DNA of 64,000 bases from Fidelibacterota bacterium (GTDB lineage Bacteria; Fidelibacterota; Fidelibacteria; Fidelibacterales; DSDE01), in contig JBJKQR010000020.1 of NCBI GenBank assembly GCA_046735395.1, forward strand, positions 23,926 through 87,925, given 5' to 3'. Below are positions 8,231 to 32,400 of this stretch, piece after piece. Position 1 is the first letter of the stretch; each line of letters starts with the position of its first letter. The notes under the pieces were generated by a model. The model was not told the DNA's origin, did no database searches, and saw only the letters and a list, made by a program, of their open reading frames with translations. The translations under genes were made by a program, and so were the position numbers.

Positions 8231-9454
8231 ATGGGACAGATATACGAGAGTTTCGTCATGGCGGTCAAGGCGGTCTTCGCCAATAAGGTACGGGCCTTTC
8301 TCACCATGCTGGGCATCATTATCGGAATTCTTTCGGTCTCTCTCATGGGAACCGCCATTTCCGGTATTGACGGTGAATTCAACCGTTCGGTTGAGATGAT
8401 GGGACAGGATGTGCTGTACGTGCAGAAATTCCCCTGGTTCATGGGAAATGATGACTGGTGGGATTTTCGCAATAGACCGGATATGGAAGAAGACTATGTG
8501 GACCGGATTCTTGCCCGTTCCAAATATGCGGAATTCTGCGCGCCTGAACTGAACCGGAACGGGGATGTGACCCGGGACGGGAAGTCTGTGGAAGGAATCG
8601 GGTTCACCGGTACGACCTGGCAGTCCGCCTATATCTCCTCCTATCAGATGGAGGAAGGGCGCTATTTTACGGAAGCGGAGAACCGGAATGCGTCCCGGAT
8701 TGCGGTGATCGGTTCAAATATTAAGAAAAACTTATTTGAGGACGAAGGCAGTGCCGTCGGACAGTATGTGAAGGTACAGGGCGTGAAATTCAGGGTCATC
8801 GGTGTTCTGAAGGAACAGGGAAAATTTCTCGGCCTTTTCAGTATGGACAATGTTCTCATCATGCCGATCAAGACGATGCGGACACTTTACGGGCGGCATC
8901 ACGGCTATCTTAGCATCACCGTGAAGGTGAAAAGCGGGTCGGACATGGAACTTGCCAAGGATGAACTGACCAATATCATGCGCTCTGTCCGCAGCCTGAA
9001 ACCCAGGGATAAGGATAATTTTGCCATTAATCAGCAGGAAGCCTTCCGGCAGCAGTTCGGTAACATCAAGCTGGCCATCGGCGGTATCGGCCTGGGAATT
9101 ACGGCATTGTCCCTGATTGTAGGCGGTATCGGTATTATGAATATCATGTTCGTTTCAGTGAAGGAGCGAACCAAGGAAATCGGCATTCGCAAGGCGCTGG
9201 GCGCCAAACGGCGTATCATTCTTTTTCAGTTTCTGAGTGAAGCGGTGGTGATTTCACTGATCGGGGGTGTCATCGGCATTCTCATCACCACATCGCTGGT
9301 GGGCCTGCTGCAGAAAGTATTTGTTGCGAATCTGTCGGTCCATCTCATCGTGATCAGTCTCAGTGTTTCGGTCATTACCGGCGTCATCAGCGGGATTGTG
9401 CCCGCGAACCAGGCTGCGCGGCTGGATCCCATTGAGGCCATGCGCTATGAATAA
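8231..9454 (+). CDS. ABC transporter permease (MacB/FtsX family)
   Basis: RAFLTMLGIIIG, VSVKERTKEIGIRKALGA, LDPIEAMRYE. Start moved to ATG 8231. Confidence 0.9.
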   Translation: MGQIYESFVMAVKAVFANKVRAFLTMLGIIIGILSVSLMGTAISGIDGEFNRSVEMMGQDVLYVQKFPWFMGNDDWWDFRNRPDMEEDYVDRILARSKYAEFCAPELNRNGDVTRDGKSVEGIGFTGTTWQSAYISSYQMEEGRYFTEAENRNASRIAVIGSNIKKNLFEDEGSAVGQYVKVQGVKFRVIGVLKEQGKFLGLFSMDNVLIMPIKTMRTLYGRHHGYLSITVKVKSGSDMELAKDELTNIMRSVRSLKPRDKDNFAINQQEAFRQQFGNIKLAIGGIGLGITALSLIVGGIGIMNIMFVSVKERTKEIGIRKALGAKRRIILFQFLSEAVVISLIGGVIGILITTSLVGLLQKVFVANLSVHLIVISLSVSVITGVISGIVPANQAARLDPIEAMRYE

Positions 9455-9514
9455 GCGCCGGGCTCATCATTATAATGTTTCCAAGGTTCCCGTAATAACA
9501 GGGAGATTTTTCAG

Positions 9515-10750
9515 ATGAATTTACTGGATATTCTGATTTCGTCGCTGGACAGCATCCGTCAGAATAAGATCAGATCCTTTCTGACTCTGCTCGGCGTGAT
9601 CATCGGCGTGTTTTCCATTATCGGTGTCATGACGGCCATCAATGTGCTTCAGGCGTCCCTGGAAACAAATCTGAATTCTCTCGGATCCAATAATTTTCAG
9701 GTTCAGAAAATGCCGGCCATCAATATCGGCGGATCAAACTGGCGCAAATACCGGAACAGGAAGAACCTGACCTATGATGATTTTGAGAAGCTGGTGGAGC
9801 GGATTCGGATTCCCGATTTTGCCACGGCGGAAGACTGGTCTTATGGAAAAACGGTTACCTTCAATGATGTCAGCACGAAGAATAATATTGTCATCGGCGG
9901 TATTACGCCGGGCTGGGACTACACGAATGATTATTCCCTGGAGTCCGGGCGGATGATCACGGAAATTGACCTGAAATCCCAGGCGAATGTGTGTATTGTC
10001 GGCCAGGATATTCTGGATCTCATCATGCCCCAGGTGCCGGATCCGGTGGGATTTTCAATCCGCTTCAGCGGAGAAAAATTCAAGATTATCGGCGTCTGGG
10101 CACGCAAGGGATCCACCTTCGGCGAGTCGAAGGATAATCTGGTTATGATTCCACTCAGCAAGCACCTGAAAATGTACAGCAACCCGCGGTGGACCTCTCT
10201 GAATTATTGTTTTACCGTACTGGATCAGAGCCGTTTTCAGGATGCGATGGACGAGGTTACGGCGGCTCTGCGGGTGATACGGAAGGTAAAACCCGGGGAT
10301 CCGGATGATTTCGAGGTCTGGACATCCGCCTCTCTCATTGATTTTTTCAACAAGATTACGGCTGCCATCAAGATGGCGGCAATGCTTATCTCCTCCATCG
10401 CGCTGCTGGCTGCCGGGATCGGTATCATGAATATTATGCTGGTGTCCGTTTCCGAGCGGACCCGGGAAATCGGAGTGCGAAAAAGTCTCGGTGCACGAAA
10501 AGCGGACATTCTCAGGCAGTTTCTCCTGGAAGCCCTTATCCTGACCCAGATCGGCGGCCTGATCGGGATCATTCTGGGTGTGCTGGGCGGCAATGTGGTG
10601 GCGATGATCCTGAATCTGAGCGCCGTCATTCCCTGGGACTGGGCTCTGGTCGGGCTCATCATATCCTCCCTGGTGGGCGCTCTGTCCGGAACCTATCCTG
10701 CCTTCAAGGCCTCCAAGCTTGATCCCATCGAAGCTCTGCGGTACGAATGA
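9515..10750 (+). CDS. ABC transporter permease (MacB/FtsX family), paralog
   Basis: RSFLTLLGVIIG, VSVSERTREIGVRKSLGA, LDPIEALRYE. Confidence 0.9.
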   Translation: MNLLDILISSLDSIRQNKIRSFLTLLGVIIGVFSIIGVMTAINVLQASLETNLNSLGSNNFQVQKMPAINIGGSNWRKYRNRKNLTYDDFEKLVERIRIPDFATAEDWSYGKTVTFNDVSTKNNIVIGGITPGWDYTNDYSLESGRMITEIDLKSQANVCIVGQDILDLIMPQVPDPVGFSIRFSGEKFKIIGVWARKGSTFGESKDNLVMIPLSKHLKMYSNPRWTSLNYCFTVLDQSRFQDAMDEVTAALRVIRKVKPGDPDDFEVWTSASLIDFFNKITAAIKMAAMLISSIALLAAGIGIMNIMLVSVSERTREIGVRKSLGARKADILRQFLLEALILTQIGGLIGIILGVLGGNVVAMILNLSAVIPWDWALVGLIISSLVGALSGTYPAFKASKLDPIEALRYE

Positions 10751-21064: not shown

Positions 21065-22177
21065 TCAGGAATTATTATTTTTTGATGATTCGTTGGATTG
21101 TTTCAGCTGTGACACTTCCGGATAATATTTTTCCAGACAGTCGGGGCAGAGACCGTGGCTGAATTCCGCTTCCGAATGAGCAGAGATATATTCCTCAAGC
21201 TGAGCCCAGTAACCGGAATCATCACGAACCTTTTTGCAGTGCATGCATACGGGGATAATTCCCTTCAAGGTCTTGATTTCATCCAGCGCCTGTGTCAATT
21301 CGCTGATGAGCTGTTCCTTTTCCTGTTCCGCTGCAATCCGCTGTTTAATTTCTTCATTCAGTGCGTGGTTTTTTCCATCCAGTTCACGGAAAATGAGGAT
21401 GAATGGTTCCTGAAATCCGGTTTGAATGAGGGCCTGGTAAATTAAAATATAACTGAAGACTTTGAAAAAGTGGCCGATAAGATTTGAAAATCCATAATTG
21501 CTGATATAAAAGGTAAAAGCCAGTTCGGAGATAATTGTAAAAATAATCGAGTACAGGAGCAGCTTGAAGACTCTTGAGTCGAAGGAGGCACGGTTTCGGT
21601 AGAGAAGGAAGATACTTGCCACAAAGACAGCGCTGATAAGGTATTCGCTGAGAATCTTGAAGGGAGTCAGGCCGCTTCCTTCAATGAAGCAGATGGGAAA
21701 GATCTTCCAGTCAAAGACGGAAAATATCAGAACAAGCGTTATGATCAGATACACCGCCCCGGTCTGCAGCATGTTGGGAATTCTGTTTCGTTTCAGAAAA
21801 AAGAAGGCGATGAGCAGGGACAGGCTTTCCATGTATCGGGCGCCGATCCAAAGCTGGTTTGCATAAAAATCGTAATCGGTAAAAATATTCATGCCCTTAT
21901 AGGAAAGCGTATGCATGAGATCAATGAATCCGATAAACAGATAGGCCGTTCCGATAAAAACGAGATATGGATTTTTCAGATAACGGCGGGCATTCCAGGC
22001 GATCATGAATACGGCGGCAGCAACAGTTATGGAAAAGAATTCGGTGAAAACATGGAAAAGCAGGTAATTATACAAAGATATGATGTAGAGCGGCGTAATC
22101 CAGAGGAGATTGTACAGAACAATCCGTGCTAAATTCGGCCCTTCTTCATCAAATTGTTCTCTCAGACGTTGTATCAT
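21065..22177 (-). CDS. MASE3 membrane sensor with coiled coil and C-terminal Cys/His motif
   Basis: YLLFHVFTEFFS, IDLMHTLSYKGM, QLWIGAR; tail CMHCKKVRD...SHGLCPDC. GGGAGG RBS before ATG 22177. Confidence 0.8.
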   Translation of the reverse strand: MIQRLREQFDEEGPNLARIVLYNLLWITPLYIISLYNYLLFHVFTEFFSITVAAAVFMIAWNARRYLKNPYLVFIGTAYLFIGFIDLMHTLSYKGMNIFTDYDFYANQLWIGARYMESLSLLIAFFFLKRNRIPNMLQTGAVYLIITLVLIFSVFDWKIFPICFIEGSGLTPFKILSEYLISAVFVASIFLLYRNRASFDSRVFKLLLYSIIFTIISELAFTFYISNYGFSNLIGHFFKVFSYILIYQALIQTGFQEPFILIFRELDGKNHALNEEIKQRIAAEQEKEQLISELTQALDEIKTLKGIIPVCMHCKKVRDDSGYWAQLEEYISAHSEAEFSHGLCPDCLEKYYPEVSQLKQSNESSKNNNS

Positions 22178-22289
22178 GCCCCCTCCCACTTATTCCGATG
22201 CGTGAATATATCAATACGCCCAGTGCATAAAAAGCAAAATTTAAGCGCTCTTTCATTAATATTGGAGAATGGTCAGAAAATAGAAATGT

Positions 22290-22913
22290 TTATTTATGGT
22301 AATATTGATCACATATTTCATTGATCAGGTCAGAGATTATCCCGGCTGCGGAATCACCCGGGCATGTTGTGTTAGGATTAATTTCACGGTGTAAGGCAAT
22401 TTGGCCGGGAGACAGTTCCAGGGAATCACAGAGACAGATAAGCAGTGTTTTTAACGCATCAAGCTGCTGCTTCCGGGGTTGCTGATGAGAGAAATTTCCG
22501 CAGAGGCAGATTCCCGCCTGTCCCCAATCCGGATCACGGACGAGAGCGGATTCGGGTGGCTGGTCTAAAATTCCATGACGTATCCGGGCTGCCATGATGT
22601 CCGCCAGGCTGTCACGGCCGGCGTGAGCCCCCATATATTCGAGTAACCGTCCCTGCCAGACCCGGCCATCATTATCGATGATGAAATGGTAGGCGATATC
22701 ACTGTAATGCATCGTTTTCACCTGATATGACTGGATTTCCTTTGGTCCCATTCGAGCGCGGAAGGCCGAGTGGTGAATGATAATCCCGGAATATCGAAAG
22801 TTCCTAATATGATATTCGTACAGACCGTCAGCCGGCCTTGATGCATGCCAGCTTTCCCGGGGTGAAATAAAGGGCGGCTTTTCGGTACAGGAACTGAATA
22901 GTAAGAACAGCAA
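22290..22913 (-). CDS. N-acetylmuramoyl-L-alanine amidase (Amidase_2/PGRP family), probable lipoprotein
   Basis: IIIHHSA, DIAYHFII, GAHA, GICLCGNF, LHRE...TCPG; lipobox FSSC. The 5' end is probably at 22954 across a frameshift. Confidence 0.8.
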   Translation of the reverse strand: MLFLLFSSCTEKPPFISPRESWHASRPADGLYEYHIRNFRYSGIIIHHSAFRARMGPKEIQSYQVKTMHYSDIAYHFIIDNDGRVWQGRLLEYMGAHAGRDSLADIMAARIRHGILDQPPESALVRDPDWGQAGICLCGNFSHQQPRKQQLDALKTLLICLCDSLELSPGQIALHREINPNTTCPGDSAAGIISDLINEICDQYYHK

Positions 22914-22950
22914 TGCGAATATACGGAAAGAGTGAAAAAAAATTTATAAA

Positions 22951-23556
22951 TCATCGTGGGAAGATATGCCGCAGACGTGAGGATTCGAAAAATTCATGAG
23001 CCCTGTCTCCGATGGAATTCCGGTAATCATAGGCGGGGACTTTTTTTCCGAAGTCAATGCCGCGGCTGTAGATAGCCGCAAGTTGGGTGATATCCGGCGG
23101 AAAGCCGTATACATTTGAATATTCGGATTTGATCAAAGTGAGGTATTGAAGTGCCAAGTCCAGATTACAGCTGTCATTCTGCAGAAGGGCAACGAGCTGA
23201 TGTCTGGATGGAAGGGTTGTTTGAGACAGAACAGAATCCTTTCCGGAGAGAAGCCAGATGGCCGTACTCACCTTGACCTGACAGAGGCCGACGGACGGAT
23301 CGTAACCCAGTTCTGCCCGTATTTGATCGTAGTAATCAAAGAAATTAACATTCTCATACCGTTCACCATAAATCACAGCGGAAAGTGTCCGTGGTGTAAT
23401 CACCGAATCGACGCAGATGGATTGAATCATGGAACTGCGTGAGGTCAACAGACGAAGGCATCGCTTTTCGGATGAAAATTCACGGCAGCTTACCGCGATC
23501 GTACAACAGATGAGGAATGAAAAACCGGTAACCCGGAGAATGCGTTTCATATTCAT
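22951..23556 (-). CDS. Lysozyme-like/lytic transglycosylase-like lipoprotein
   Basis: Lipobox AVSC; AVIYGE (candidate catalytic Glu), SVGLCQV (GLMQ-like), NLDLALQYL, AAIYSRG (AYNxG-like). Start 23556 has a GGGAGG RBS and ATGA overlap. Confidence 0.6.
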   Translation of the reverse strand: MNMKRILRVTGFSFLICCTIAVSCREFSSEKRCLRLLTSRSSMIQSICVDSVITPRTLSAVIYGERYENVNFFDYYDQIRAELGYDPSVGLCQVKVSTAIWLLSGKDSVLSQTTLPSRHQLVALLQNDSCNLDLALQYLTLIKSEYSNVYGFPPDITQLAAIYSRGIDFGKKVPAYDYRNSIGDRAHEFFESSRLRHIFPR

Positions 23557-24083
23557 TGTCGTTCCCTCCCCTGCAACAGACGCAGAGCTGCCGGCAGGTG
23601 AGTCAGCGTTTCGGCGCGCTGCTCCGCGTCGAGCGGCCAGGAACAAAGACAAAAACCTTCCGCATTCAGGAGAAAGGCCCGCGGGACACCATCATTTTGC
23701 AGAGTTCTGATCAGAGAATCAGGGATACATTGATCATAAAAATCAGCACCCGGTCCACCCGGCTTCAACAGATCTTCGTGGTTGCTGCTGAACAGGATAC
23801 GGCAGGAGTCGTTGATGGAGCGAAGCGAATTCATATACGTCAATTCGCGGCGGAGACCCGAAAAGGACGTATTCCCGAACCTAAAAACAAGCACCGGGCG
23901 GTGAGGGTTATTATTGCGGAGAATTTGCCGCCCAAGATAATTTGCGGCGGCCTCTGAAGAATCCTGATAAAAATTCAGACGATTTTTGTAAAGACGCTGC
24001 CGGGAACGATATTCAGAATTCAGAAACATGAGAACGAGAATAAAGAGGGCGGCGGCGATGTTGAGAAATCTTCCGGAATTCAT
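23553..24083 (-). CDS. Membrane-anchored hypothetical protein, possible thioredoxin-like fold without CxxC
   Basis: N-terminal TM helix; PVLVFRF...GVPRAFLLNAEG pattern; translationally coupled on both sides. Confidence 0.5.
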   Translation of the reverse strand: MNSGRFLNIAAALFILVLMFLNSEYRSRQRLYKNRLNFYQDSSEAAANYLGRQILRNNNPHRPVLVFRFGNTSFSGLRRELTYMNSLRSINDSCRILFSSNHEDLLKPGGPGADFYDQCIPDSLIRTLQNDGVPRAFLLNAEGFCLCSWPLDAEQRAETLTHLPAALRLLQGRERQ

Positions 24084-24787
24084 GCCAGGATTCCCTCATT
24101 GAAATAATGATTCAGATCCTGTACCGAACCGGCATTTCCCGGTTGATCATAGAGAATTCGCCCTTCTTCCATGAGGATGAAGCGGCCGGAGGTAGCGAGG
24201 ACATTTTCCAGATTATGGCTGGAAATAAAATGGGTTGTTCCCCGTTCACGATTTTCGCGGAGCAGGATCTTTTCGAAGGCATTCTTTGATCCGGGATCAA
24301 GGCTGGCAAAGGGTTCATCCAGAATCAGCAATTTGGGCTGGCGAAGCAGGGCGCCCACCAAACCCACTTTTTTCCGGTTCCCGGCTGACAGGTCGCGGAT
24401 ATAGCGGGACCCGAAAAGAATTTCTTCGGGTATGAAACCTTCGAAGGAATCCAGATCACTTTTCCATTCAGAGGATTCTTTTCCGCTGACCTGCATCAGA
24501 AATGAAAAGTATTCCCAGGGTGTGAGAAAGGTGATGAGCCAGCTTTCATCCAGATAGGATGCGGTGAGTGTCTTCCAGCCGGTATGTCCCTGAACGGCTC
24601 CACCATTGATAAAAACGGATCCGGAATCCGCCTTTATCAGATCCAGAATCAGGCGAAGCAGAGTTGTCTTGCCGGCGCCGTTATTGCCGCAGAGAGCTAC
24701 GGTTTCACCAGGCTGCAGCCGCAGTTCGGGAATGGTCAGCTCAAAATGGGGCCGATACGTTTTTATAAGGTCTTCAATGAATAACAT
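24080..24787 (-). CDS. ABC transporter ATP-binding protein
   Basis: GNNGAGKTT, LSAGNRKK, LILDEPF, SSH. Confidence 0.92.
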   Translation of the reverse strand: MLFIEDLIKTYRPHFELTIPELRLQPGETVALCGNNGAGKTTLLRLILDLIKADSGSVFINGGAVQGHTGWKTLTASYLDESWLITFLTPWEYFSFLMQVSGKESSEWKSDLDSFEGFIPEEILFGSRYIRDLSAGNRKKVGLVGALLRQPKLLILDEPFASLDPGSKNAFEKILLRENRERGTTHFISSHNLENVLATSGRFILMEEGRILYDQPGNAGSVQDLNHYFNEGILA

Positions 24788-24809
24788 AACACCCTTTCAA
24801 TTTTTGGGG

Positions 24810-26234
24810 TTAAAAAATGGTGTACTTCGATTGTTCATACCGTCGTCCGGCACTTCGGATAACGGGCTTCATGAACAGGAAGCCGATTACGCCCGGAAGA
24901 GCGAGGATACTTAGCACGAGGGGAAGTCCAAATATGGGAGTTAATTTTCTAACAAGCATTGGAAAAGCAATGCACATAAACCCAAGCGGGATGAAACGAA
25001 AAAATACAGCTGTACGACTTGAAAAAGGCTGAAACCGAAGCAATGAAAAAAACTCAAGATGCCTGCTGCTGTACCAAATGATATAAGGCAGGTATGCGCC
25101 ATGAGCGGTAACCCAGGTGCTTATAAAGACAAGGGTGGTGATTGGTTGCGGATACTTTGCAATCGATACCGCAGTATAAACGACCAAAGCGATAATTGCA
25201 TCGGCCGAGCAGGATATGATTACCGCACGCCGCACGTAGGTTTCATAATTTTGAATGAGCACATGGACCAGCGGATAAAAGGAGTTTTCCCAGCTGAACA
25301 AACAGGTTACAATTGTACATGATTGGAAGGTAATCGGTGTAACTAAGAAATAATGGAAATAATTCGACAACTCCCCCTGGCTTAAAAAATAAAAGCAAGG
25401 AAGGATAAGGAACGTAATGTGATTTAAAATTGGAATTTTATTGCGGGTGATCATGCGCCAGAGTATCCTGGTGGGAGACATGCCGCGAGAATTAAGAAGT
25501 TTAGAGCGATTGATCTTCGCATAAGGTGCGCCGGAATTCCGGCCGTCATAGGGGGAGAGGCGGGATTGGTAAATCCATATTGTGGATGACGCGATGCATA
25601 TCAGGGTGACAAAAAGCAGAAGAATGAGGTGGTTCAGACTGAGAAAATCAAGGATAGCCGGGGGAATCTCACTTATCTTTTGAACGAAAAAAATCAGGCC
25701 AGCGATCATAGATATCATCACTGTCCATCTGATAATCTGAGATGGAATCAGAAAGCCAAGCCGATACAGGAAATGATCCGATAACAGGATGATAAACAGC
25801 AAAGCTGCCAGGCCGGTCAGAAGGGCGGAGGGACCGAGCAGCAGGGCCGAGAGCAAAAAGCAGATGAAGGGAGGAAGAAGAGTCAAAAGATTATAGAGGG
25901 TCATGAGGGCCAGGCTTTCATGGAACAGAACGAGGCTGCGCCGGGTAAAGGGGAGAATCAGATAGGGCATCATTCCGCTGTATAAAGCTTTCTGAAAGAA
26001 TAGGCGAAATGTCTGGTCAATGATCATTGAGATGATGATAATCTGAAGGAGGGTTTTTGTTTCGAGTTCCGTGACCGTATTTTGAAACAGCGTTACGAGG
26101 AAGGGAAATCCGTTCGTAATCTGAAGGATATAAACAAGGCCGAAAACGGCTAAAAATCCAAATTTCCAGATATCCCCGCGCCGGGGTGAACGAAGCGTGG
26201 CCGCGACCATATGTCGAAAAAAGTGAATAACCAT
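24810..26234 (-). CDS. Multi-pass membrane protein, copy A (probable ABC permease or immunity protein)
   Basis: 474 aa, highly hydrophobic, PYLILP motif, precedes the ABC ATPase; paralog of 27115-28554. Confidence 0.7.
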   Translation of the reverse strand: MVIHFFRHMVAATLRSPRRGDIWKFGFLAVFGLVYILQITNGFPFLVTLFQNTVTELETKTLLQIIIISMIIDQTFRLFFQKALYSGMMPYLILPFTRRSLVLFHESLALMTLYNLLTLLPPFICFLLSALLLGPSALLTGLAALLFIILLSDHFLYRLGFLIPSQIIRWTVMISMIAGLIFFVQKISEIPPAILDFLSLNHLILLLFVTLICIASSTIWIYQSRLSPYDGRNSGAPYAKINRSKLLNSRGMSPTRILWRMITRNKIPILNHITFLILPCFYFLSQGELSNYFHYFLVTPITFQSCTIVTCLFSWENSFYPLVHVLIQNYETYVRRAVIISCSADAIIALVVYTAVSIAKYPQPITTLVFISTWVTAHGAYLPYIIWYSSRHLEFFSLLRFQPFSSRTAVFFRFIPLGFMCIAFPMLVRKLTPIFGLPLVLSILALPGVIGFLFMKPVIRSAGRRYEQSKYTIF

Positions 26235-26244
26235 ATCCTGTCCG

Positions 26245-26276
26245 AAAATCAGCCGCCCGAAAGCCGGACGGCCGAT
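26245..26276 (-). terminator. Stem-loop after the peptide genes, copy A
   Basis: ATCGGCCGTCCG-GCTTT-CGGGCGGCTGAT-TTT. Confidence 0.7.
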
Positions 26277-26292
26277 AAGGTTTCACGTGTGT

Positions 26293-26484
26293 TTAATCAA
26301 GGCATATTCCAACAAAGGCACCCGCACCCAGAGTCCATGCTATAAAAGCAGGCGGGTAAATGACCCAGGGGGCGGTGACTAACAGCCCTGCTACAAGAGT
26401 TATACAAATATCCTCCCGGTTATCGCCGATGAATTCAGAGACTCCTCCACCTGCGATATCATTTGCATCAAGGATTGATTTCAT
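26293..26484 (-). CDS. Double-glycine precursor peptide P3A (63 aa)
   Basis: Leader MKSILDANDIAGG; hydrophobic two-Cys core; AAGGGA RBS. Confidence 0.85.
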   Translation of the reverse strand: MKSILDANDIAGGGVSEFIGDNREDICITLVAGLLVTAPWVIYPPAFIAWTLGAGAFVGICLD

Positions 26485-26656
26485 GATTGTGTCCCTTTCT
26501 GAGTTTCAGTCCGGCTCGGCGCCAGCATAGGACCACACCGGCCCGAGACAGGTAAGGCAGAGTCCACAGCAGCGGCAGCGCCACATCTTTGACACAGTCG
26601 CTGAAGCGGCAGCCGCAGCAGTTGTTTTTCATTGTTTGTTTTGACAGGGTGTGCAT
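26468..26656 (-). pseudogene. Degraded precursor peptide P2A
   Basis: Paralog of P2B, but NTCGGG has become NNCCGC (GG lost) and a net 5-nt deletion frameshifts the C-terminus into P3A. Confidence 0.7.
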
Positions 26657-26665
26657 CGCGTTCTC

Positions 26666-26842
26666 CTAATCCCAGCTGCCAAGAAGGCGGCCGAAATCGT
26701 AGCCGGTACAGATCAGCCCGATCGTCGTTACGACGACATTCAAAGTCAGAAGGCCCACGGCGGTAATACCGAGACAGATGGTGCCCAATTCTATCTCACC
26801 GCCCTGAATGGCGGCCAGTTCATTCTTGTCGAGATTTTTCAT
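26666..26842 (-). CDS. Double-glycine precursor peptide P1A (58 aa)
   Basis: Leader MKNLDKNELAAIQGG; core EIELGTICLGITAVGLLTLNVVVTTIGLICTGYDFGRLLGSWD; AAGGA RBS. Confidence 0.9.
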   Translation of the reverse strand: MKNLDKNELAAIQGGEIELGTICLGITAVGLLTLNVVVTTIGLICTGYDFGRLLGSWD

Positions 26843-27105
26843 GATTTTTCCTTTCCTTTTGATGTTTCCCGTCCGTTTCCGGGGCCTCCTGACCAGACCG
26901 ATCCTCACCTCCTTTCCCGGAAGTCTGACCCGTCGGCCATCAGAAGCGAACAGCAAGGCGTTCAGCGGAGCCACAGCACCAAAAAGTCGGTTTTTTCATT
27001 TGTTTCAATTTGTCCGAAGCGGACTGAGGAATTGTACAGTAATTCAGGAAAGGCCAGCTCGAAATGGGTCCGAAACGGTTTATTAAGGCCTTTAACGAAT
27101 AACAT
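26843..27105 (-). pseudogene. Chimeric remnant at the duplication junction
   Basis: MLFVKGLNKPFRTHFELAFPEL (ABC ATPase start) fused at ~27037 to NSSVRFGQIET (3' part of the 29173-29673 gene), then frameshifted. Confidence 0.85.
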
Positions 27106-27114
27106 AACACTCTT

Positions 27115-28554
27115 TCAATTTTTAAGGTTAAAAATAGTGTACTTCGATTGCTCGTAACGCCTTCCGGCGCTTCGGATAACGGGCTTCATGAACAGGAACC
27201 CGATTAGGCCCGGAAGAGCGAGGATGGCAAGTGCCCATGGAGCGCCCATAAGGGGAATTAATTTTTTAAAGATAAAGGGTAATAGAACGACTATAATGAC
27301 TATAGGGATTAATCGGATATAATCAATGGACTTATAAGAAACAGGTTGCCATCGAATCAGAGAAAAAAACATCAGATGTTTGCTGTTATACCAAATCAGA
27401 TAAGGCAGAAATAAACCGTGGGTGATGATGTAGGCGCTGGCAAAGGCAAGAACCGTAAAGGGTTCGGGATGGCCGGCAACAAGCGCCCCGAAAAAAAACA
27501 TGAAAGCCAAGAACATATCTATAATACAGGAGAGATACAGGGCACGTCGGCCATAGGCTACATAATCCCGGAGGAGGATATGGACCAGGGGATAAAAGGA
27601 ATTCTCCCAGCTGAACAAATATATTATTAAAAAGGCAGATAAAAAGGTCATCAGTATGATATACAGAAAACAGAGCTGTGTGGAATACATTTCCCGGCCC
27701 AGGAAATACGGAACCGTAATAATGAAAATAAATAAAAGGTTATTGATTAAGAGGACCCTGTTGCGAATCAGCATGCGCCAGATCAGCCCGTAGAGAGATA
27801 TCGTGTGATTACGAAGACCTTTCGTGTGCTTCATCTTTGCCTCGCGGACGCGGGTTTTCTGATGGTCATAGGGGGAGAGGCGGGACTGATAGATCCATGC
27901 AGTTGAGATGGCGATACAGATCAGGATGACGAAAACCAGAAGAGTGAGGTGACCCAGGCTGAGAAAATCAAGGATGGCCGGGGGAATCGCACTTATCTTT
28001 TGAACGAAAAAAAACAGGCAAACGATCATAGATATCATCACTGTCCATCTGATAATCTGAGATGGAATCAGAAAGCTGAGCCGATACAGGAAATGATCCA
28101 GTAAAAAGGCCAGACTCAGCAAAAGGGCCAGTCCGGTCAGAAGGGCAGAGGGGCCGAGCAGCAGGGCTGAAAGCAAAAAACAGATGAGGGGAGGAATGAG
28201 TGTTAATAGATTGTAGAGGGTCATGAGGGCCAGGCTTTCATGGAAAAGGACGAGGCTGCGCCGTGTAAAGGGAAGAATCAGATAGGGCATCATTCCGGTG
28301 AGGGACGCTTTTTGAGAGAACAGGCGAAATGACTGGTCGATGATCATCGAGATGGTGATAATCTGAAGGAGGGTTTTCGCTTCGAGTGTTGTAGACGTAT
28401 TTTGAAACAGGGCTGCAAGGAAAGGAAATCCGTTCGTAATCTGAAGGATAAAAACAAGGCCAAAAACGGCTGAAAATCCAAATTTCCAGACATCTCCGCG
28501 CCGGGGTGAACGAAGCATGGCTGCAACCAGATGTTGAAAAAGGTGAATGACCAT
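27115..28554 (-). CDS. Multi-pass membrane protein, copy B (probable ABC permease or immunity protein)
   Basis: 479 aa; paralog of 24810-26234. Confidence 0.7.
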   Translation of the reverse strand: MVIHLFQHLVAAMLRSPRRGDVWKFGFSAVFGLVFILQITNGFPFLAALFQNTSTTLEAKTLLQIITISMIIDQSFRLFSQKASLTGMMPYLILPFTRRSLVLFHESLALMTLYNLLTLIPPLICFLLSALLLGPSALLTGLALLLSLAFLLDHFLYRLSFLIPSQIIRWTVMISMIVCLFFFVQKISAIPPAILDFLSLGHLTLLVFVILICIAISTAWIYQSRLSPYDHQKTRVREAKMKHTKGLRNHTISLYGLIWRMLIRNRVLLINNLLFIFIITVPYFLGREMYSTQLCFLYIILMTFLSAFLIIYLFSWENSFYPLVHILLRDYVAYGRRALYLSCIIDMFLAFMFFFGALVAGHPEPFTVLAFASAYIITHGLFLPYLIWYNSKHLMFFSLIRWQPVSYKSIDYIRLIPIVIIVVLLPFIFKKLIPLMGAPWALAILALPGLIGFLFMKPVIRSAGRRYEQSKYTIFNLKN

Positions 28555-28564
28555 ATCCTGTCCG

Positions 28565-28596
28565 AAAATCAGCCGCCCGAAAGCCGGGCGACTGAT
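28565..28596 (-). terminator. Stem-loop after the peptide genes, copy B
   Basis: ATCAGTCGCCCG-GCTTT-CGGGCGGCTGAT-TTT. Confidence 0.7.
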
Positions 28597-28612
28597 GAGT
28601 GTTTAAGTGAGT

Positions 28613-28807
28613 TTAATCAAGGCAAAAACCAGCAAAGACGCCGGCACCTACAGCCCATCCAAGTGCGACAGGAGCCATGTAAACTATAGGCGCGGATGCC
28701 ATCAGGCCGGATGCCAGGCTCATACAGAGGTCTTCGTGATTGTCGCGGAGGAAATCACCAATTCCACTTCCTCCGGCAATGTCTTCTGTATTGATTATTG
28801 TTTTCAT
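28613..28807 (-). CDS. Double-glycine precursor peptide P3B (64 aa)
   Basis: Leader MKTIINTEDIAGG; hydrophobic two-Cys core; GGAG RBS. Confidence 0.85.
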   Translation of the reverse strand: MKTIINTEDIAGGSGIGDFLRDNHEDLCMSLASGLMASAPIVYMAPVALGWAVGAGVFAGFCLD

Positions 28808-28834
28808 AATTCTTCTCCATGTTATCTTTGAGTT

Positions 28835-28990
28835 TCAGTCCGGCTCGGTGATACGGTAGCACAGGACCACCCCGGCCAGAGACAGGTAAGGCAGGGTCCA
28901 CAGAAGCGGCAGCGCCACATCTTTGACACAATCGCTGAAGATGCCGCCGCCGCAGGTGTTTTTCATTGTTTGTTTTGACAGGGTTTTCAT
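28835..28990 (-). CDS. Double-glycine precursor peptide P2B (51 aa; not in ORF track)
   Basis: Hand translation MKTLSKQTMKNTCGG|GIFSDCVKDVALPLLWTLPYLSLAGVVLCYRITEPD; GAGG RBS. Confidence 0.8.
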   Translation of the reverse strand: MKTLSKQTMKNTCGGGIFSDCVKDVALPLLWTLPYLSLAGVVLCYRITEPD

Positions 28991-28999
28991 GGTATGCCT

Positions 29000-29176
29000 C
29001 TATTCCCATTCGCGAAGAAAGCGGCCCAAACTGTAGCCGGTGCAGAAGAGTCCGATCGCGGTGAGGGCAGGATTCACCAAAACAACTCCTGCAAGACCGG
29101 CCAGGAGGCAGATCGTCCCCACATCCAGTTCGCCGCCCTGAATGGCGGCCATTTCATTTTTGTCGAGATTTTTCAT
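29000..29176 (-). CDS. Double-glycine precursor peptide P1B (58 aa; not in ORF track)
   Basis: Hand translation MKNLDKNEMAAIQGG|ELDVGTICLLAGLAGVVLVNPALTAIGLFCTGYSLGRFLREWE; ATGA overlap with the upstream gene. Confidence 0.9.
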   Translation of the reverse strand: MKNLDKNEMAAIQGGELDVGTICLLAGLAGVVLVNPALTAIGLFCTGYSLGRFLREWE

Positions 29177-29673
29177 GATTGTTCCTTTCCTTTTGATGTT
29201 TCCCGTCCGTTTCCGAGCCTCCTGACCAGACCGATCCTCACCTCCTTTCCCAGATGTCTGACCAGTCGGCCATCAGAAGCGAACAGCCAGGCGTCAAGCG
29301 GAGCCCCTGCACCAAAAAGTCGGGTTTTTTCAGTTGTTTCAATTTGTCCGAAGCGGACAGAAGGATTATGCCTTAGCCGTGTCCAGGCATAGTAATGATT
29401 ATTTTTGAAAAATCCGGGTGTCGTACACAGCAGGTACACATTCAGTGAAGCCAGATCATCGCTGTGGTTTTCCAGATAATAGATATTCCGGATACAGTTG
29501 CAATGCGTATCAAAGAACACGATCAGTACGGGATCTGTATTCCCATTCCTGACCGGAATTTCCAGATTGCCGGCTGTCCGATAACTGAATTCCGGGATTT
29601 TTTCACCCTGCTGAATCCTGTCTGTATGGCTGCAGGCGCTGATCAGGATACATAAACAGAATAGGACAGACAT
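29173..29673 (-). CDS. Thioredoxin-like (TlpA/redoxin) lipoprotein with CxC motif
   Basis: Lipobox ISAC; GEKIPEFSY, PVLIVFFDTHCNC, FGAGAP..WLFASDGRLV. Start uncertain. Confidence 0.65.
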   Translation of the reverse strand: MSVLFCLCILISACSHTDRIQQGEKIPEFSYRTAGNLEIPVRNGNTDPVLIVFFDTHCNCIRNIYYLENHSDDLASLNVYLLCTTPGFFKNNHYYAWTRLRHNPSVRFGQIETTEKTRLFGAGAPLDAWLFASDGRLVRHLGKEVRIGLVRRLGNGRETSKGKEQS

Positions 29674-29684
29674 GCCGAATTTTC

Positions 29685-30341
29685 CTAATTTAAAAGCGGA
29701 GTTTTGGGCAATAACAGATTGAACCCCCATTGGAAAATGAGAGAAATGGCCCACAATCCCAACAGGATCAGGGCAGCATCGGACAGGGAACTTTTGCCGG
29801 ATTTATTCAGTCTGTAGGCGACGAAAGCGATCCAGAGCAGGGTAAACAGGCTGATCCTGCCCATGAGAGCCCAGGATTGGAGGGTATAGGAGAGCGGATC
29901 CAGAAATGCCTGGATGGAAAGGAAAGACTGCTGGACGAGCTTGTTTGTATAATTTTGAACAGGGATGGTCAGCAGCCTGATAAAGGCAAAGAATTTCTGA
30001 GACAGGGGAATGAATTCGGCAAGCAGGCAGATATTCAGCAGGTCACGGTAGGGGATTTCCTTCTGCCTGAGCAAGAATACAAGCTGAATGATAAGGGCTA
30101 CGAAAAGAATTTTGATTCCGGTGGTAATGGGATTGAAGAAGTAGGTGAGCATGGACATTTTTTCTATCATGAACATGACGGAATCGGATTGGCCCTGAGG
30201 CAGCCCCGCATCCTGCATGATGGGTGACCGGGACACGCGCTGAAAGAGAAATTCCATATAAAACCAGTTCGTGAAAGTGATTCCCAGTAAAAGCGCAAAT
30301 GCATTCATCGCTACTGTTTTTTTCCTTTTCGGCTCATTCAT
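29685..30341 (-). CDS. Yip1-like membrane protein
   Basis: About 5 TM helices with a topology similar to 4249-4938 (e.g. ISLFTLLWI versus VDIFRLWKI). Confidence 0.55.
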   Translation of the reverse strand: MNEPKRKKTVAMNAFALLLGITFTNWFYMEFLFQRVSRSPIMQDAGLPQGQSDSVMFMIEKMSMLTYFFNPITTGIKILFVALIIQLVFLLRQKEIPYRDLLNICLLAEFIPLSQKFFAFIRLLTIPVQNYTNKLVQQSFLSIQAFLDPLSYTLQSWALMGRISLFTLLWIAFVAYRLNKSGKSSLSDAALILLGLWAISLIFQWGFNLLLPKTPLLN

Positions 30342-32400
30342 GTCTGTCTCCTATTGTAATACACGGTGTGTTGTTTCGAAAAAGTGCCGGATCATGGCTG
30401 ATAATCAGGACCAGGTGTGTTGCCGCATAGTTTTCCAGCAGGGCCTGAATCAGTGGACGTGATTCGGTATCCAGCGAGCTGATTCCCTCATCCACTATCA
30501 GCAGCCGGGGTTGGGAAAGAAGAGCCCGGATCAGGCCGATGATAAATTTTTCTCCGCCGGACAGCCGCTGGCCTTCTTCGCTGAGCAGCGTCATCAATCC
30601 AAGTTTGAATCGGCCGATGAACCAGGAAAAATCATAGCTTTTAAAAAAGCGTTCCAATTCATTCAGGGGCCTGTTCCCCAGGCCGATCTGGATGTTTTCC
30701 AGCAGGGTTCCGTTAAAAATATAAATATCCTGAGGAATGAGACGAACAGCAGCGCGAAGCAGCTCAATTGAAAGATTTTTTAGTGAGCAGCCATTCAGAA
30801 GAATCTGACCCTGATAGTCGGTGTAAATGCCGCACAGAAGCCGGGAAAGAGTACTTTTTCCACTTCCATTTCGTCCCTGGAGAAAATGAAGTCCGTTATT
30901 TTCCAGGGAGAAGGTGACATGATGAAAGAGCCGGGGAGACTTGGGGTAGCTGAAATTCAAACCGGATACGCGAAGGGACGTGGCCTGATCGTGAAAGGTT
31001 TGAAGCCCGTCCTGTTTTTCCGATGGGTGGAGGAGGATGTCCCGCAGTCTGACATAGGCGATGCGAGCCTGCTGCAGATCGCCGATTCCGCTCATGATGA
31101 GCTGAAGCGCAGGAATCATTCCGGCCAGCAGGCTGTAACTGCCCATGAACTGGCCAAGCGGGAGTTTTCCCTGAATCACTTCACGGACGCCGAGAAACAG
31201 AAAAAGGATGCTTAAGAGGGCGGACAGGCCCTCGATGCTCATGCCGTAGTCTGCCGCAAAGATGGAAAGGTTTTTTCGAAGGTCTTGAAATTGACGGAAA
31301 TACTCGTGGTTTTTCATGTTGAAGTGGTGATCGGCGCCATTTCGCCGGATGGATTCCTGGCCGTGAATGATATCGATATACGAGGACTCCAGATCCGCAT
31401 AACTTTTCATCAGCCGGTTATTGCGGGTTTTAAGCCCCGGTATGAAATAGATGCCTGTGAAAACGTACAGCAGCAGAAGCCCGCAGACCGGTACGACGAT
31501 GCCCGGGCTCATGATGATCATATATCCGAGACTGCTGAGAAGAAGTATGCCCTGTATCAGAAAATCATTGCAGACCTGTACCACGGCTCTCTGGATGCGC
31601 AGGGCATCCTGCATGCGGGCGGTGAGATCCCCGGTTTTCCGGGATTCAAAAAAATGCTGAGGCAGCGCCAGGAGTTGGGAAATAAAGTCTGTATGCAATT
31701 CCAGATTGAATCGTTCACTGAAGGATGCGAGCATGCGAATTCTGGCATTTCCGGCAAGGGCCCGGAGCAGCATCACGATGGCAAAGAACGCCAGAAGTGG
31801 TAAAAATTCATGAAAGTTTGCGGTCGGGATGTACACATCGATGGCCTGCTGAATGAGCAGGGCGGTCACAAGGCCGGAGATGCTGAGAAACAGGGCCAGA
31901 ACTACACTCTGTACCAGCCAGGAACTCGTATTTGCCAGGCGCGGACGGATCCACTGAAACCAGCCGGGAGGGGCCTTTCGTTCGAGGGGGCCGGCCGGTT
32001 CAAGCAGCAGAACAATTCCTTCCTTCCAGATGCTGAGGAAATTCTGATGAGACAGGGAATGAACAGATTTCCCGGGGTCGGCGACCTTTACTTTGTTCTG
32101 GCCGATATTCAGAATGATGAGATAATGGTGCAGGCCGGAATTCAGAATGACGTGAGCGATACAGGGCAGATTTTCTTCAGCCAGTTCCTGAAGTGAGCCC
32201 CGGGCCGCGCGGGTGGTGAATCCATAATGTTCCGCGGCTTCCAGCAGATCGGACAGGCGGGTTCCGCTGCGGTCCGTCCGGCAGCGGGCTCTCATTTCCA
32301 CGAGAGAACCGTCTCCACCATGGTAGCGAAGCAGGGACAGCAGGCAGCAGGGCCCGCAGTCTGTTTCATTGACCTGTTTTTCAAGAGGAAACCGGAACAT
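30334..32400 (-). CDS. Peptidase C39-containing ABC transporter (PCAT, bacteriocin exporter type)
   Basis: QVNETDCG (catalytic Cys), HHYLI, VADP; FFESRKTGD; GRNGSGKST, LSGGEK, LIVDE, ISH; AGGAGG RBS. Confidence 0.95.
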   Translation of the reverse strand: MFRFPLEKQVNETDCGPCCLLSLLRYHGGDGSLVEMRARCRTDRSGTRLSDLLEAAEHYGFTTRAARGSLQELAEENLPCIAHVILNSGLHHYLIILNIGQNKVKVADPGKSVHSLSHQNFLSIWKEGIVLLLEPAGPLERKAPPGWFQWIRPRLANTSSWLVQSVVLALFLSISGLVTALLIQQAIDVYIPTANFHEFLPLLAFFAIVMLLRALAGNARIRMLASFSERFNLELHTDFISQLLALPQHFFESRKTGDLTARMQDALRIQRAVVQVCNDFLIQGILLLSSLGYMIIMSPGIVVPVCGLLLLYVFTGIYFIPGLKTRNNRLMKSYADLESSYIDIIHGQESIRRNGADHHFNMKNHEYFRQFQDLRKNLSIFAADYGMSIEGLSALLSILFLFLGVREVIQGKLPLGQFMGSYSLLAGMIPALQLIMSGIGDLQQARIAYVRLRDILLHPSEKQDGLQTFHDQATSLRVSGLNFSYPKSPRLFHHVTFSLENNGLHFLQGRNGSGKSTLSRLLCGIYTDYQGQILLNGCSLKNLSIELLRAAVRLIPQDIYIFNGTLLENIQIGLGNRPLNELERFFKSYDFSWFIGRFKLGLMTLLSEEGQRLSGGEKFIIGLIRALLSQPRLLIVDEGISSLDTESRPLIQALLENYAATHLVLIISHDPALFRNNTPCITIGDRHE

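Follow-up and report, generated by a model that had tools for sequence, protein, structure and literature searches.

A putative bacteriocin locus with three families of anionic two-cysteine peptides in a Fidelibacterota bacterium

Bacteroidetocins are peptide toxins of gut Bacteroidota for which the class IIf has been proposed (Coyne et al. 2019, PMC6671954). They are described as peptides with a leader of 15-16 aa ending in GG, a mature part of approximately 35-50 aa and at least two Cys, and their reported target is BamA (Matano et al. 2021, PMC8546649). According to the first of these sources, a region of four genes, encoding a C39 ATP-binding cassette (ABC) exporter, a multi-pass transmembrane (TM) protein, a thiol oxidoreductase and the peptide, suffices for toxin production in E. 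coli, and deletion of the gene for the TM protein, the oxidoreductase or the peptide attenuated toxin activity in each case (PMC6671954). Here, we describe a locus with the same component types in a stretch of 64,000 nucleotides from a Fidelibacterota bacterium (assembly GCA_046735395.1, contig JBJKQR010000020.1, positions 23,926 to 87,925 of the forward strand). This whole stretch is referred to as the window, and its own numbering is used throughout. The locus encodes three families of short peptides, named P1, P2 and P3, and it is reasonably probable that it is a bacteriocin locus of the bacteroidetocin or class II microcin kind with a three-peptide set.

Other described systems share parts of this arrangement. 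Class IIa microcins such as MccV and MccL have a GG leader cut by a peptidase-containing ABC transporter (PCAT), carry disulfides as their only modification and act through receptors, and their loci are described with a membrane-fusion protein (MFP), a small immunity protein and general DsbA/B. Microcins are reported to be mostly very hydrophobic and of neutral or negative charge, a positive charge being dispensable for peptides that work through receptors; MccV has 2 Cys in one disulfide and a charge of -0.13, and MccL has 4 Cys in two disulfides and a charge of -3.36 (PMC10233263). Two-peptide bacteriocins of class IIb (lactococcin G, plantaricin EF/JK) are encoded by adjacent GG-leader genes in an operon and are helical, membrane-penetrating and endowed with GxxxG motifs (PMC2850506). 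In Bacillus, the YknWXYZ system is described as a Yip1-type membrane protein with an ABC pump acting against a peptide toxin, the sporulation-delaying protein SDP (PMC4887032).

The locus of the window agrees with the bacteroidetocins in the GG leader, size and Cys content of its peptides, in having a producer from the Fibrobacterota-Chlorobiota-Bacteroidota (FCB) group and in its four component types, which are matched by composition and order only. It differs from them in encoding three anionic two-Cys peptides, an oxidoreductase with a CxC site and a module formed by a DUF5687 membrane protein and an ABC ATPase. Compared with class IIa microcins, which its peptides resemble in GG leader, hydrophobicity and charge, it has no MFP and carries a private thioredoxin-like lipoprotein and an ABC pump, so it falls outside the five-part definition of that class, which includes an MFP, a small immunity protein and a core of 60-90 aa. 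The class IIb systems differ in their Gram-positive producers and their cationic, Cys-free pairs, whereas three anionic hairpins of disulfide type are found here; the definition of that class asks for cationic components that all carry GxxxG or AxxxA/SxxxS, and P2 has no GxxxG. As for YknWXYZ, the pump would here consist of DUF5687 and its ATPase, and the 218-aa membrane protein is only weakly YknW-like (20.5 bits). The design appears to correspond to a class IIa microcin of short length combined with a production module of bacteroidetocin type. What distinguishes it from both bacteroidetocins and microcins is the set of three co-conserved families, the cores of 36-51 aa, the CxC oxidoreductase, the lack of an MFP and the DUF5687/ABC module. 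A first-pass annotation of this DNA had presented the negative charge as a surprise. This view has to be abandoned, as class IIa microcins are already described as anionic or neutral, hydrophobic and receptor-mediated (PMC10233263), and the contrast with cationic Gram-positive bacteriocins is unsurprising because Gram-negative microcins follow the anionic, receptor-based rule. The features of the locus, from the exporter to the ATPase, are the following:

30334..32400, minus strand: C39-peptidase ABC exporter (PCAT), 688 aa (Pfam Peptidase_C39 108.6, ABC_membrane 99.8 and ABC_tran 80.1 bits)
29685..30341, minus strand: multi-pass membrane protein, 218 aa, distantly Yip1/YknW-like (NCBIfam YknW_fam, hhalign)
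29173..29673, minus strand: thioredoxin-like lipoprotein, lipobox ILISAC (weak ResA match, E 0.015)
29000..29176, minus strand: P1, upper copy, 15-aa GG leader, 43-aa core, C-x21-C, charge -2
28835..28990, minus strand: P2, upper copy, GG(G) leader, 36-aa core, C-x22-C, charge -2
28613..28807, minus strand: P3, upper copy, 13-aa GG leader, 51-aa core, C-x33-C, charge -4, C-terminus CLD
28568..28596, minus strand: 12-bp stem-loop between upper P3 and the DUF5687 gene (-22.4 kcal/mol, z -4.6)
27115..28554, minus strand: DUF5687-like polytopic membrane protein, upper copy, 479 aa (Pfam PF18940, 30.2 bits)
26962..27105, minus strand: duplication junction, 47-aa chimeric open reading frame (ORF) (ORF translations, alignment of both units)
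26666..26842, minus strand: P1, lower copy, C-x21-C, charge -3
26468..26656, minus strand: P2, lower copy, degenerate, GG replaced and C-terminus frameshifted
26293..26484, minus strand: P3, lower copy, C-x33-C, charge -4
26248..26276, minus strand: stem-loop after lower P3 (-23.9 kcal/mol, z -3.3)
24810..26234, minus strand: DUF5687 membrane protein, lower copy, 474 aa (Pfam PF18940, 46.1 bits)
24080..24787, minus strand: ABC ATPase paired with DUF5687, presumed self-protection pump (ABC_tran 80.2 bits)

In the ORF list of the window, every gene of the region is on the minus strand; gatB, transcribed oppositely, lies upstream, and a MASE3 kinase gene downstream. The G+C content of the locus is 49.1%, versus 51.6% over the whole window. 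The cassette of three peptides (P1, P2 and P3, followed by DUF5687) is present twice in tandem, and its peptide genes are tightly packed in one operon, with a spacing of 9-27 nt.

Five of the six peptides are intact, each with a double-glycine leader and a hydrophobic core holding exactly two Cys. Leaders measure 15, 15 and 13 aa and cores 43, 36 and 50-51 aa for P1, P2 and P3, respectively, and the grand average of hydropathy (GRAVY) of the cores is 0.81-1.10. When recomputed, the Cys spacings and the charges of -2/-3 (P1), -2 (P2) and -4/-4 (P3) came out as counted by hand in the first-pass annotation. Its description of the stretch between the Cys as mostly apolar holds as well, since no charged residue is found there in either P1 or either P3 and two are found in upper P2. 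In shuffles with the Cys kept fixed, this exclusion of charge had P values of 0.0003-0.02 for P1/P3 and 0.10 for P2. Moreover, the paralogue cores are approximately 46% identical with invariant Cys, in agreement with the claim that the Cys are kept while the interiors diverge. The rule of exactly two Cys stands for the five intact peptides; lower P2, which had been left out of it, shows CGC at the position aligned with GG and three Cys and a charge of +5 after that position, and its reading frame extends into the start of lower P3. This copy is probably a pseudogene. In the leader of upper P2 (28946-28954) there is a Cys at -3 before GG, where the decayed lower copy reads CCGC.

The three families had also been called unrelated. 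No profile kinship was detected between the P1, P2 and P3 cores (hhalign probabilities 0.3-5.7%), with a shortness that leaves common descent possible, and because the peptides are short the word can be kept only in the sense of no detectable similarity. The double-glycine leader domain TIGR01847 matched both copies of P1 (17 and 18.2 bits, above the 15.7 cut-off) and left P2 and P3 unmatched.

Word-index searches of 5.8 billion clusters returned only the queries (1 of 1 candidates for P1, 1 of 14 for the P3 pair and 3 of 4 for the P2 trio). HMMER with the P1 pair against 1.84 billion representatives (E <= 0.001) gave six matches, namely two self matches, three homologues and one spurious hit. 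The latter, P0007, is a 377-aa protein with five near-identical repeats of about 56 aa (E 4e-5 to the P1 profile), judged compositional and not a relative. All three homologues show C-x21-C, a midpoint Asn-Pro turn and a charge of -3 or -4. Within 41 related genomes, no real match to P1 was found outside the own genome (best E 0.09), and searching genome contigs with the thioredoxin pair gave 98 pattern matches, none of them confirmed. Look-alikes of P1 and P3 proposed by a language model belong to class II GG-leader bacteriocin clusters (scores 0.91-0.92), which can be taken as leads only. In the titles and opening lines of abstracts on Marinimicrobia and bacteriocins, nothing on such a locus appears.

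A search with one of the P1 homologues located a metagenome contig, L016, that holds a single cassette. It has the same ten genes as the window in the same order, and its proteins are 23-48% identical where matched by BLAST:

Exporter: 42%
TM protein: 29%
Thioredoxin-like protein: 35%
P1: 47%
P3: 29% (E 1.3e-5)
DUF5687: 24%
ATPase: 48%
176-aa protein: 23%
Downstream lipoprotein: 40%

P1, P2 and P3 of L016 have two Cys each and charges of -4, -2 and -4. Its P3 shows C-x30-C, and the P2 counterpart, assigned by position and without a BLAST match, has a GG leader and C-x24-C. As both traits are kept in these peptides, the Cys and the negative charge outlast deep divergence in all three families. 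Loss of the Cys in homologues had been named beforehand as the observation that would speak against the design; instead, both Cys are kept in every homologue found.

Furthermore, among 401 genomes of the phylum, 13 gave a match to a profile built from the thioredoxin-like protein (E <= 0.001). The three best beyond the own genome, which belong to the same order (genus g4), were followed up (G015, G005 and G003), and the other nine, with weaker and partial matches, probably hold ordinary TlpA-type genes. The g4 loci consist of an exporter, a TM protein and a thioredoxin-like protein with CxxC, followed by one or two GG peptides with C-x29-C, a charge of 0 or -1 and a C-terminal Asp. Past the peptides, the same lipoprotein and an amidase are found, and then apparent Yip1, TolC, MFP, MacB-type ATPase and permease genes, roles that were assigned by eye from N-terminal sequences. 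Altogether, the 14 GG peptides of the window, L016, the g4 loci and two orphan P1 homologues all have exactly two Cys, a charge between 0 and -4 and Asp or Glu as their last residue.

A survey of the 401 genomes for C39 domains found them in 24, and 16 regions were scanned for GG-leader ORFs. Seven of them (L065, L067, L068, L069, L070, L073 and L075) contain eight leader-like hydrophobic peptides picked by eye, with charges of -2 to +1; seven of these peptides have two Cys near both core ends and one has three. Since hydrophobicity was among the selection criteria, only Cys number and charge are informative here. No such peptide was recognised in the other nine regions, several of which end at contig edges. 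In L075 (9517-11424) and L073 (7071-11061), a stand-alone C39 protein of 193-203 aa lies beside an AhpC/Redoxin-type thioredoxin-like gene and a two-Cys GG peptide, and L073 also has two Yip1-domain genes. In L065 and L067 (genomes G050 and G055), GG peptides of 52-57 aa (806-1021 and 2184-2402 in L065; 2159-2362 in L067) occur with a longer PCAT (807-833 aa), an ABC ATPase and a sigma-54 activator, without a thioredoxin-like gene among the neighbours tested. Both L065 peptides have Cys at the extreme ends of a core ending in CGS, and the L067 peptide has three Cys.

Concerning the fold, AlphaFold2 predicts for P1 a helix (4-17), a turn (18-20) and a second helix (21-42) with a predicted local distance difference test score (pLDDT) of 89.7, and for P3 helices at 3-9, 11-24 and 32-50 with a pLDDT of 80.1, in both cases from a small alignment. 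Residue 19 of P1, which adjoins the Asn-Pro pair, lies exactly midway between Cys8 and Cys30, and the midpoint of the two Cys in the other families coincides with or adjoins stretches containing Pro, Gly or Asn. Acidic residues are located in the N-terminal tail and at the C-terminus, which share one side of the predicted hairpin. The proposal of disulfide-clamped hairpins thus gains indirect support from the helix-turn-helix model, the roughly symmetric and conserved Cys and the adjacent thioredoxin-like gene kept in relatives, and the two Cys of each core are probably joined by one disulfide. Sequence searches of PDB gave for P1 a designed protein as best match (E 0.019), which is not meaningful, and nothing for P3.

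The exporter is the only C39 domain of its genome (G000). It matches TIGR01193 with an E of 3.8e-92, yet below the cut-off, and has Cys15, His91/92 and Asp108, which we take to be the residues expected of an active C39 domain. The 218-aa protein matches YknW_fam with an E of 2.8e-4, far under the cut-off. Both L016 and the g4 loci contain orthologues of it, and a profile of four of them aligned with five Yip1-type proteins of related loci over 186 columns (hhalign 89%, E 2.4e-6); it appears to be the counterpart of the bacteroidetocin TM protein. The thioredoxin-like lipoprotein, for which the ATG at 29673 was taken as start (the ORF list has a GTG at 29754), is the presumed disulfide-forming enzyme, and family scans found no modification enzyme besides it in the locus. 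Its site is HCNC (CxC) in the window and NCSC in L016, with CTFC, CPFC and CPYC at the same column of three g4 orthologues. The CxC of both three-peptide loci (the L016 copy lies at 9440-9997) corresponds to a deletion of one residue relative to the CxxC of g4.

Regarding the DUF5687 proteins, the lower copy matches PF18940 over positions 7-477 of 484, above the 33-bit cut-off, and the upper copy, with nine hydropathy peaks, falls just under it. A literature search on the name DUF5687 returned nothing, and searching genome contigs with the DUF5687 pair gave 96 pattern matches, none confirmed. A DUF5687 gene followed by a gene for a Walker-A ATPase is found with the lower copy of the window and in L016, L010 and L015.

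The two cassettes bear the trace of their origin. In the 47-aa chimeric ORF, the N-terminus of the ATPase (approximately 25 residues) is fused to a fragment from the C-terminal part of the thioredoxin-like gene; its presence at 26962-27105 therefore indicates a tandem duplication of approximately 2.33 kb, and hence an ancestral state with a single cassette, as in L016. In the alignment, identity along the duplicated unit is mosaic. The DUF5687 copies are 64% identical, with 84% over the N-terminal 230 codons and 37% over codons 231-440. The synonymous divergence (dS) and, where given, its ratio with nonsynonymous divergence (dN/dS) are as follows:

P2: dS 0.17
P1 leader: dS 0.28
DUF5687 codons 1-230: dS 0.35
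P1 core: dS 0.94, dN/dS 0.49
DUF5687 codons 231-440: dS 1.20, dN/dS 0.43
P3 core: dS 1.51, dN/dS 0.27

The result is two P1/P3 sets, each with its own C-terminal half of DUF5687. The stem-loop after P3 is kept in position in three of three cassettes (the two of the window and that of L016, where its sequence differs). The consensus terminator scan did not list the one at 28568..28596, which is likely a partial terminator or an mRNA-stabilising hairpin, and these stem-loops fit an expression of the peptide genes above that of the downstream genes.

From the gene content, the conservation, the pattern of Cys and charge and the predicted fold, we infer export, oxidation, killing, protection, receptor use and joint action of the peptides, which would proceed as follows. 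P1, P2 and P3 would be made with double-glycine leaders of 13-15 residues, which the single C39-peptidase exporter would trim while carrying the cores over the inner membrane. There, the membrane-tethered thioredoxin-like lipoprotein with its CxC site, aided by the Yip1-like protein, would link the two Cys of each core. Each core would thus become a helix-turn-helix hairpin with its uncharged arms pinned and its acidic termini on one side. After uptake through a receptor, and with no electrostatic attraction involved, the hairpins would enter the membranes of related bacteria with the loop ahead, and the DUF5687 permease and the ABC ATPase would expel them from the membrane of the producer. 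The two diverged cassettes may represent two specificities of toxin and protection, carried by the P1/P3 cores and DUF5687's C-terminal half. A common processing route and a common type of target envelope would account for the likeness of the three families, without a need for shared ancestry.

Several observations weigh against this interpretation. Bacteroidetocins A and B are basic (+2 and +6), have four Cys, act as single peptides and come without an immunity gene, and the cores of class IIa microcins are described as 74-90 aa long, about twice the 36-51 aa found here. P1 stays under the cut-offs of the bacteriocin families PF10439 Bacteriocin_IIc (17.3/17.0 bits, cut-off 27.1) and TIGR03949 lactobin A-cerein 7B (14.5/17.1 bits, cut-off 21.5), with matches that lie mainly in the leader, and P2 and P3 had no family match in the Pfam and NCBIfam scans. 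There is no membrane-fusion or outer-membrane component in the locus, nor any gene of MFP/HlyD type within 22290-32400, and the passage over the outer membrane is therefore unexplained. Given its weak ResA match and unusual CxC, the thioredoxin-like lipoprotein could instead reduce or isomerise disulfides. In L010, the DUF5687-ATPase pair occurs without peptide genes, so the pair seems to be a general two-gene ABC module recruited here, and a function in protection is conjectural. Positive selection acting on the cores was not supported, dN/dS being below 1 everywhere, and since dS itself varies by segment, some segments would have undergone gene conversion or diverged ones would have been imported; the mosaic may thus reflect gene conversion or recombination.

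Among the other explanations, an obligate three-part toxin, in which P1, P2 and P3 are subunits that pair through GxxxG in the target membrane and none is active alone, fares best and is still rather unlikely. L016 retains the three peptide genes in unchanged order even though its exporter is only 42% identical, the genes of the trio are closely spaced in one operon, and the P1 and P3 cores diverged jointly between the cassettes while P2 stayed similar. GxxxG lies beside the second Cys in four of five P1 and three of three P3 sequences, and all characterised two-peptide bacteriocins are reported to carry this motif (PMC2850506). The strings quoted in the first-pass annotation do exist (GYSLG, GYDFG, GVFAG and GAFVG), but GxxxG arises in 46-66% of shuffles of these Gly-rich cores; as a signal by itself it was consequently rejected, and P2 has no small-xxx-small motif either. 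Moreover, lower P2 decayed beside intact P1 and P3, so P2 would be dispensable in that cassette unless upper P2 serves both. In addition, related loci hold a single peptide of the same design and bacteroidetocins act alone. The predicted complex of the three cores (score 0.17, mark 0.32) carries no weight either way.

It is improbable that the hairpins, once their leaders are cut off, stay in the membrane of the producer without ever being released, forming small subunits or regulators that serve the DUF5687 ABC transporter or, with the amidase, the remodelling of the envelope. Such a role would agree with a locus devoid of outer-membrane export parts and with the joint divergence of the peptide cores and DUF5687's C-terminal half; the P1 model also weakly resembles transmembrane hairpins of respiratory complexes, the only Foldseek matches, none of them significant (E 2.8-9). 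However, a PCAT cuts the leader in the course of export, the module has the composition of a toxin-production module proven according to the description of the bacteroidetocins, and DUF5687-ATPase pairs occur without such peptides. Signalling by secreted pheromones (ComC/BlpC style) that a membrane kinase would sense is slightly more improbable still: GG-leader pheromones leave the cell through exporters of this type, the gene for a MASE3 sensor kinase is found about 0.1 kb past the amidase gene and sigma-54 activators flank the PCAT loci L065 and L067, but the MASE3 gene is outside the locus conserved in L016, family scans found no response regulator in the locus, and a toxin function suits three very hydrophobic hairpins (GRAVY 0.8-1.1) that come with an oxidoreductase and a dedicated ABC pump better than a role as diffusible signals.

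The remaining genes of the region follow the ATPase:

23553..24083, minus strand: 176-aa protein with N-terminal membrane anchor, no family
22951..23556, minus strand: lipoprotein without family match, conserved in all three locus types
22290..22913, minus strand: Amidase_2 protein
21065..22189, minus strand: MASE3-domain sensor kinase gene (300.9 bits)

The 176-aa protein had no Pfam, NCBIfam or PHROG match, and its identification as a degenerate thioredoxin was rejected (hhalign 0.7%); a 233-aa protein had no PHROG match. The ATG of the downstream lipoprotein gene overlaps the stop codon of the preceding gene (ATGA), and the protein aligns with 198-aa proteins of the g4 loci (hhalign 99.8%). 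Its counterparts lie at 13356-14006 in L016 and, including the amidase, at 8583-9693 in the g4 locus L032, and a lipoprotein of Amidase_2/endolysin type comes next to it downstream, in the window as well as in g4. It may be a cell-wall-cutting helper for the release of the peptides.

Taking the bacteriocin interpretation a step further, it is tentatively possible, and no more than that, that the locus makes a three-component toxin of disulfide-stapled anionic hairpins, with a specificity set by the P1/P3 cores and read by the C-terminal half of DUF5687, and that two-Cys cargo of this kind extends across the phylum. If so, this would be the first bacteriocin composed of several peptides from a Gram-negative or FCB-group bacterium, and C39 exporters with a private thioredoxin and a Yip1-like protein would generally, phylum-wide, carry cargo in which two Cys flank an uncharged hairpin. 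The comparison also corrects the notion that negative charge is exceptional for bacteriocins of Gram-negative producers, and it adds three new peptide families of simple architecture with almost no relatives. The locus suggests a first function for DUF5687, a permease that would thereby gain its first role, and the diverged peptide/permease cassettes offer a natural pair for mapping specificity. Finally, the production module of bacteroidetocin type is extended from gut Bacteroidota to an uncultured lineage, and its reach into this lineage suggests that the module is old in the FCB group.

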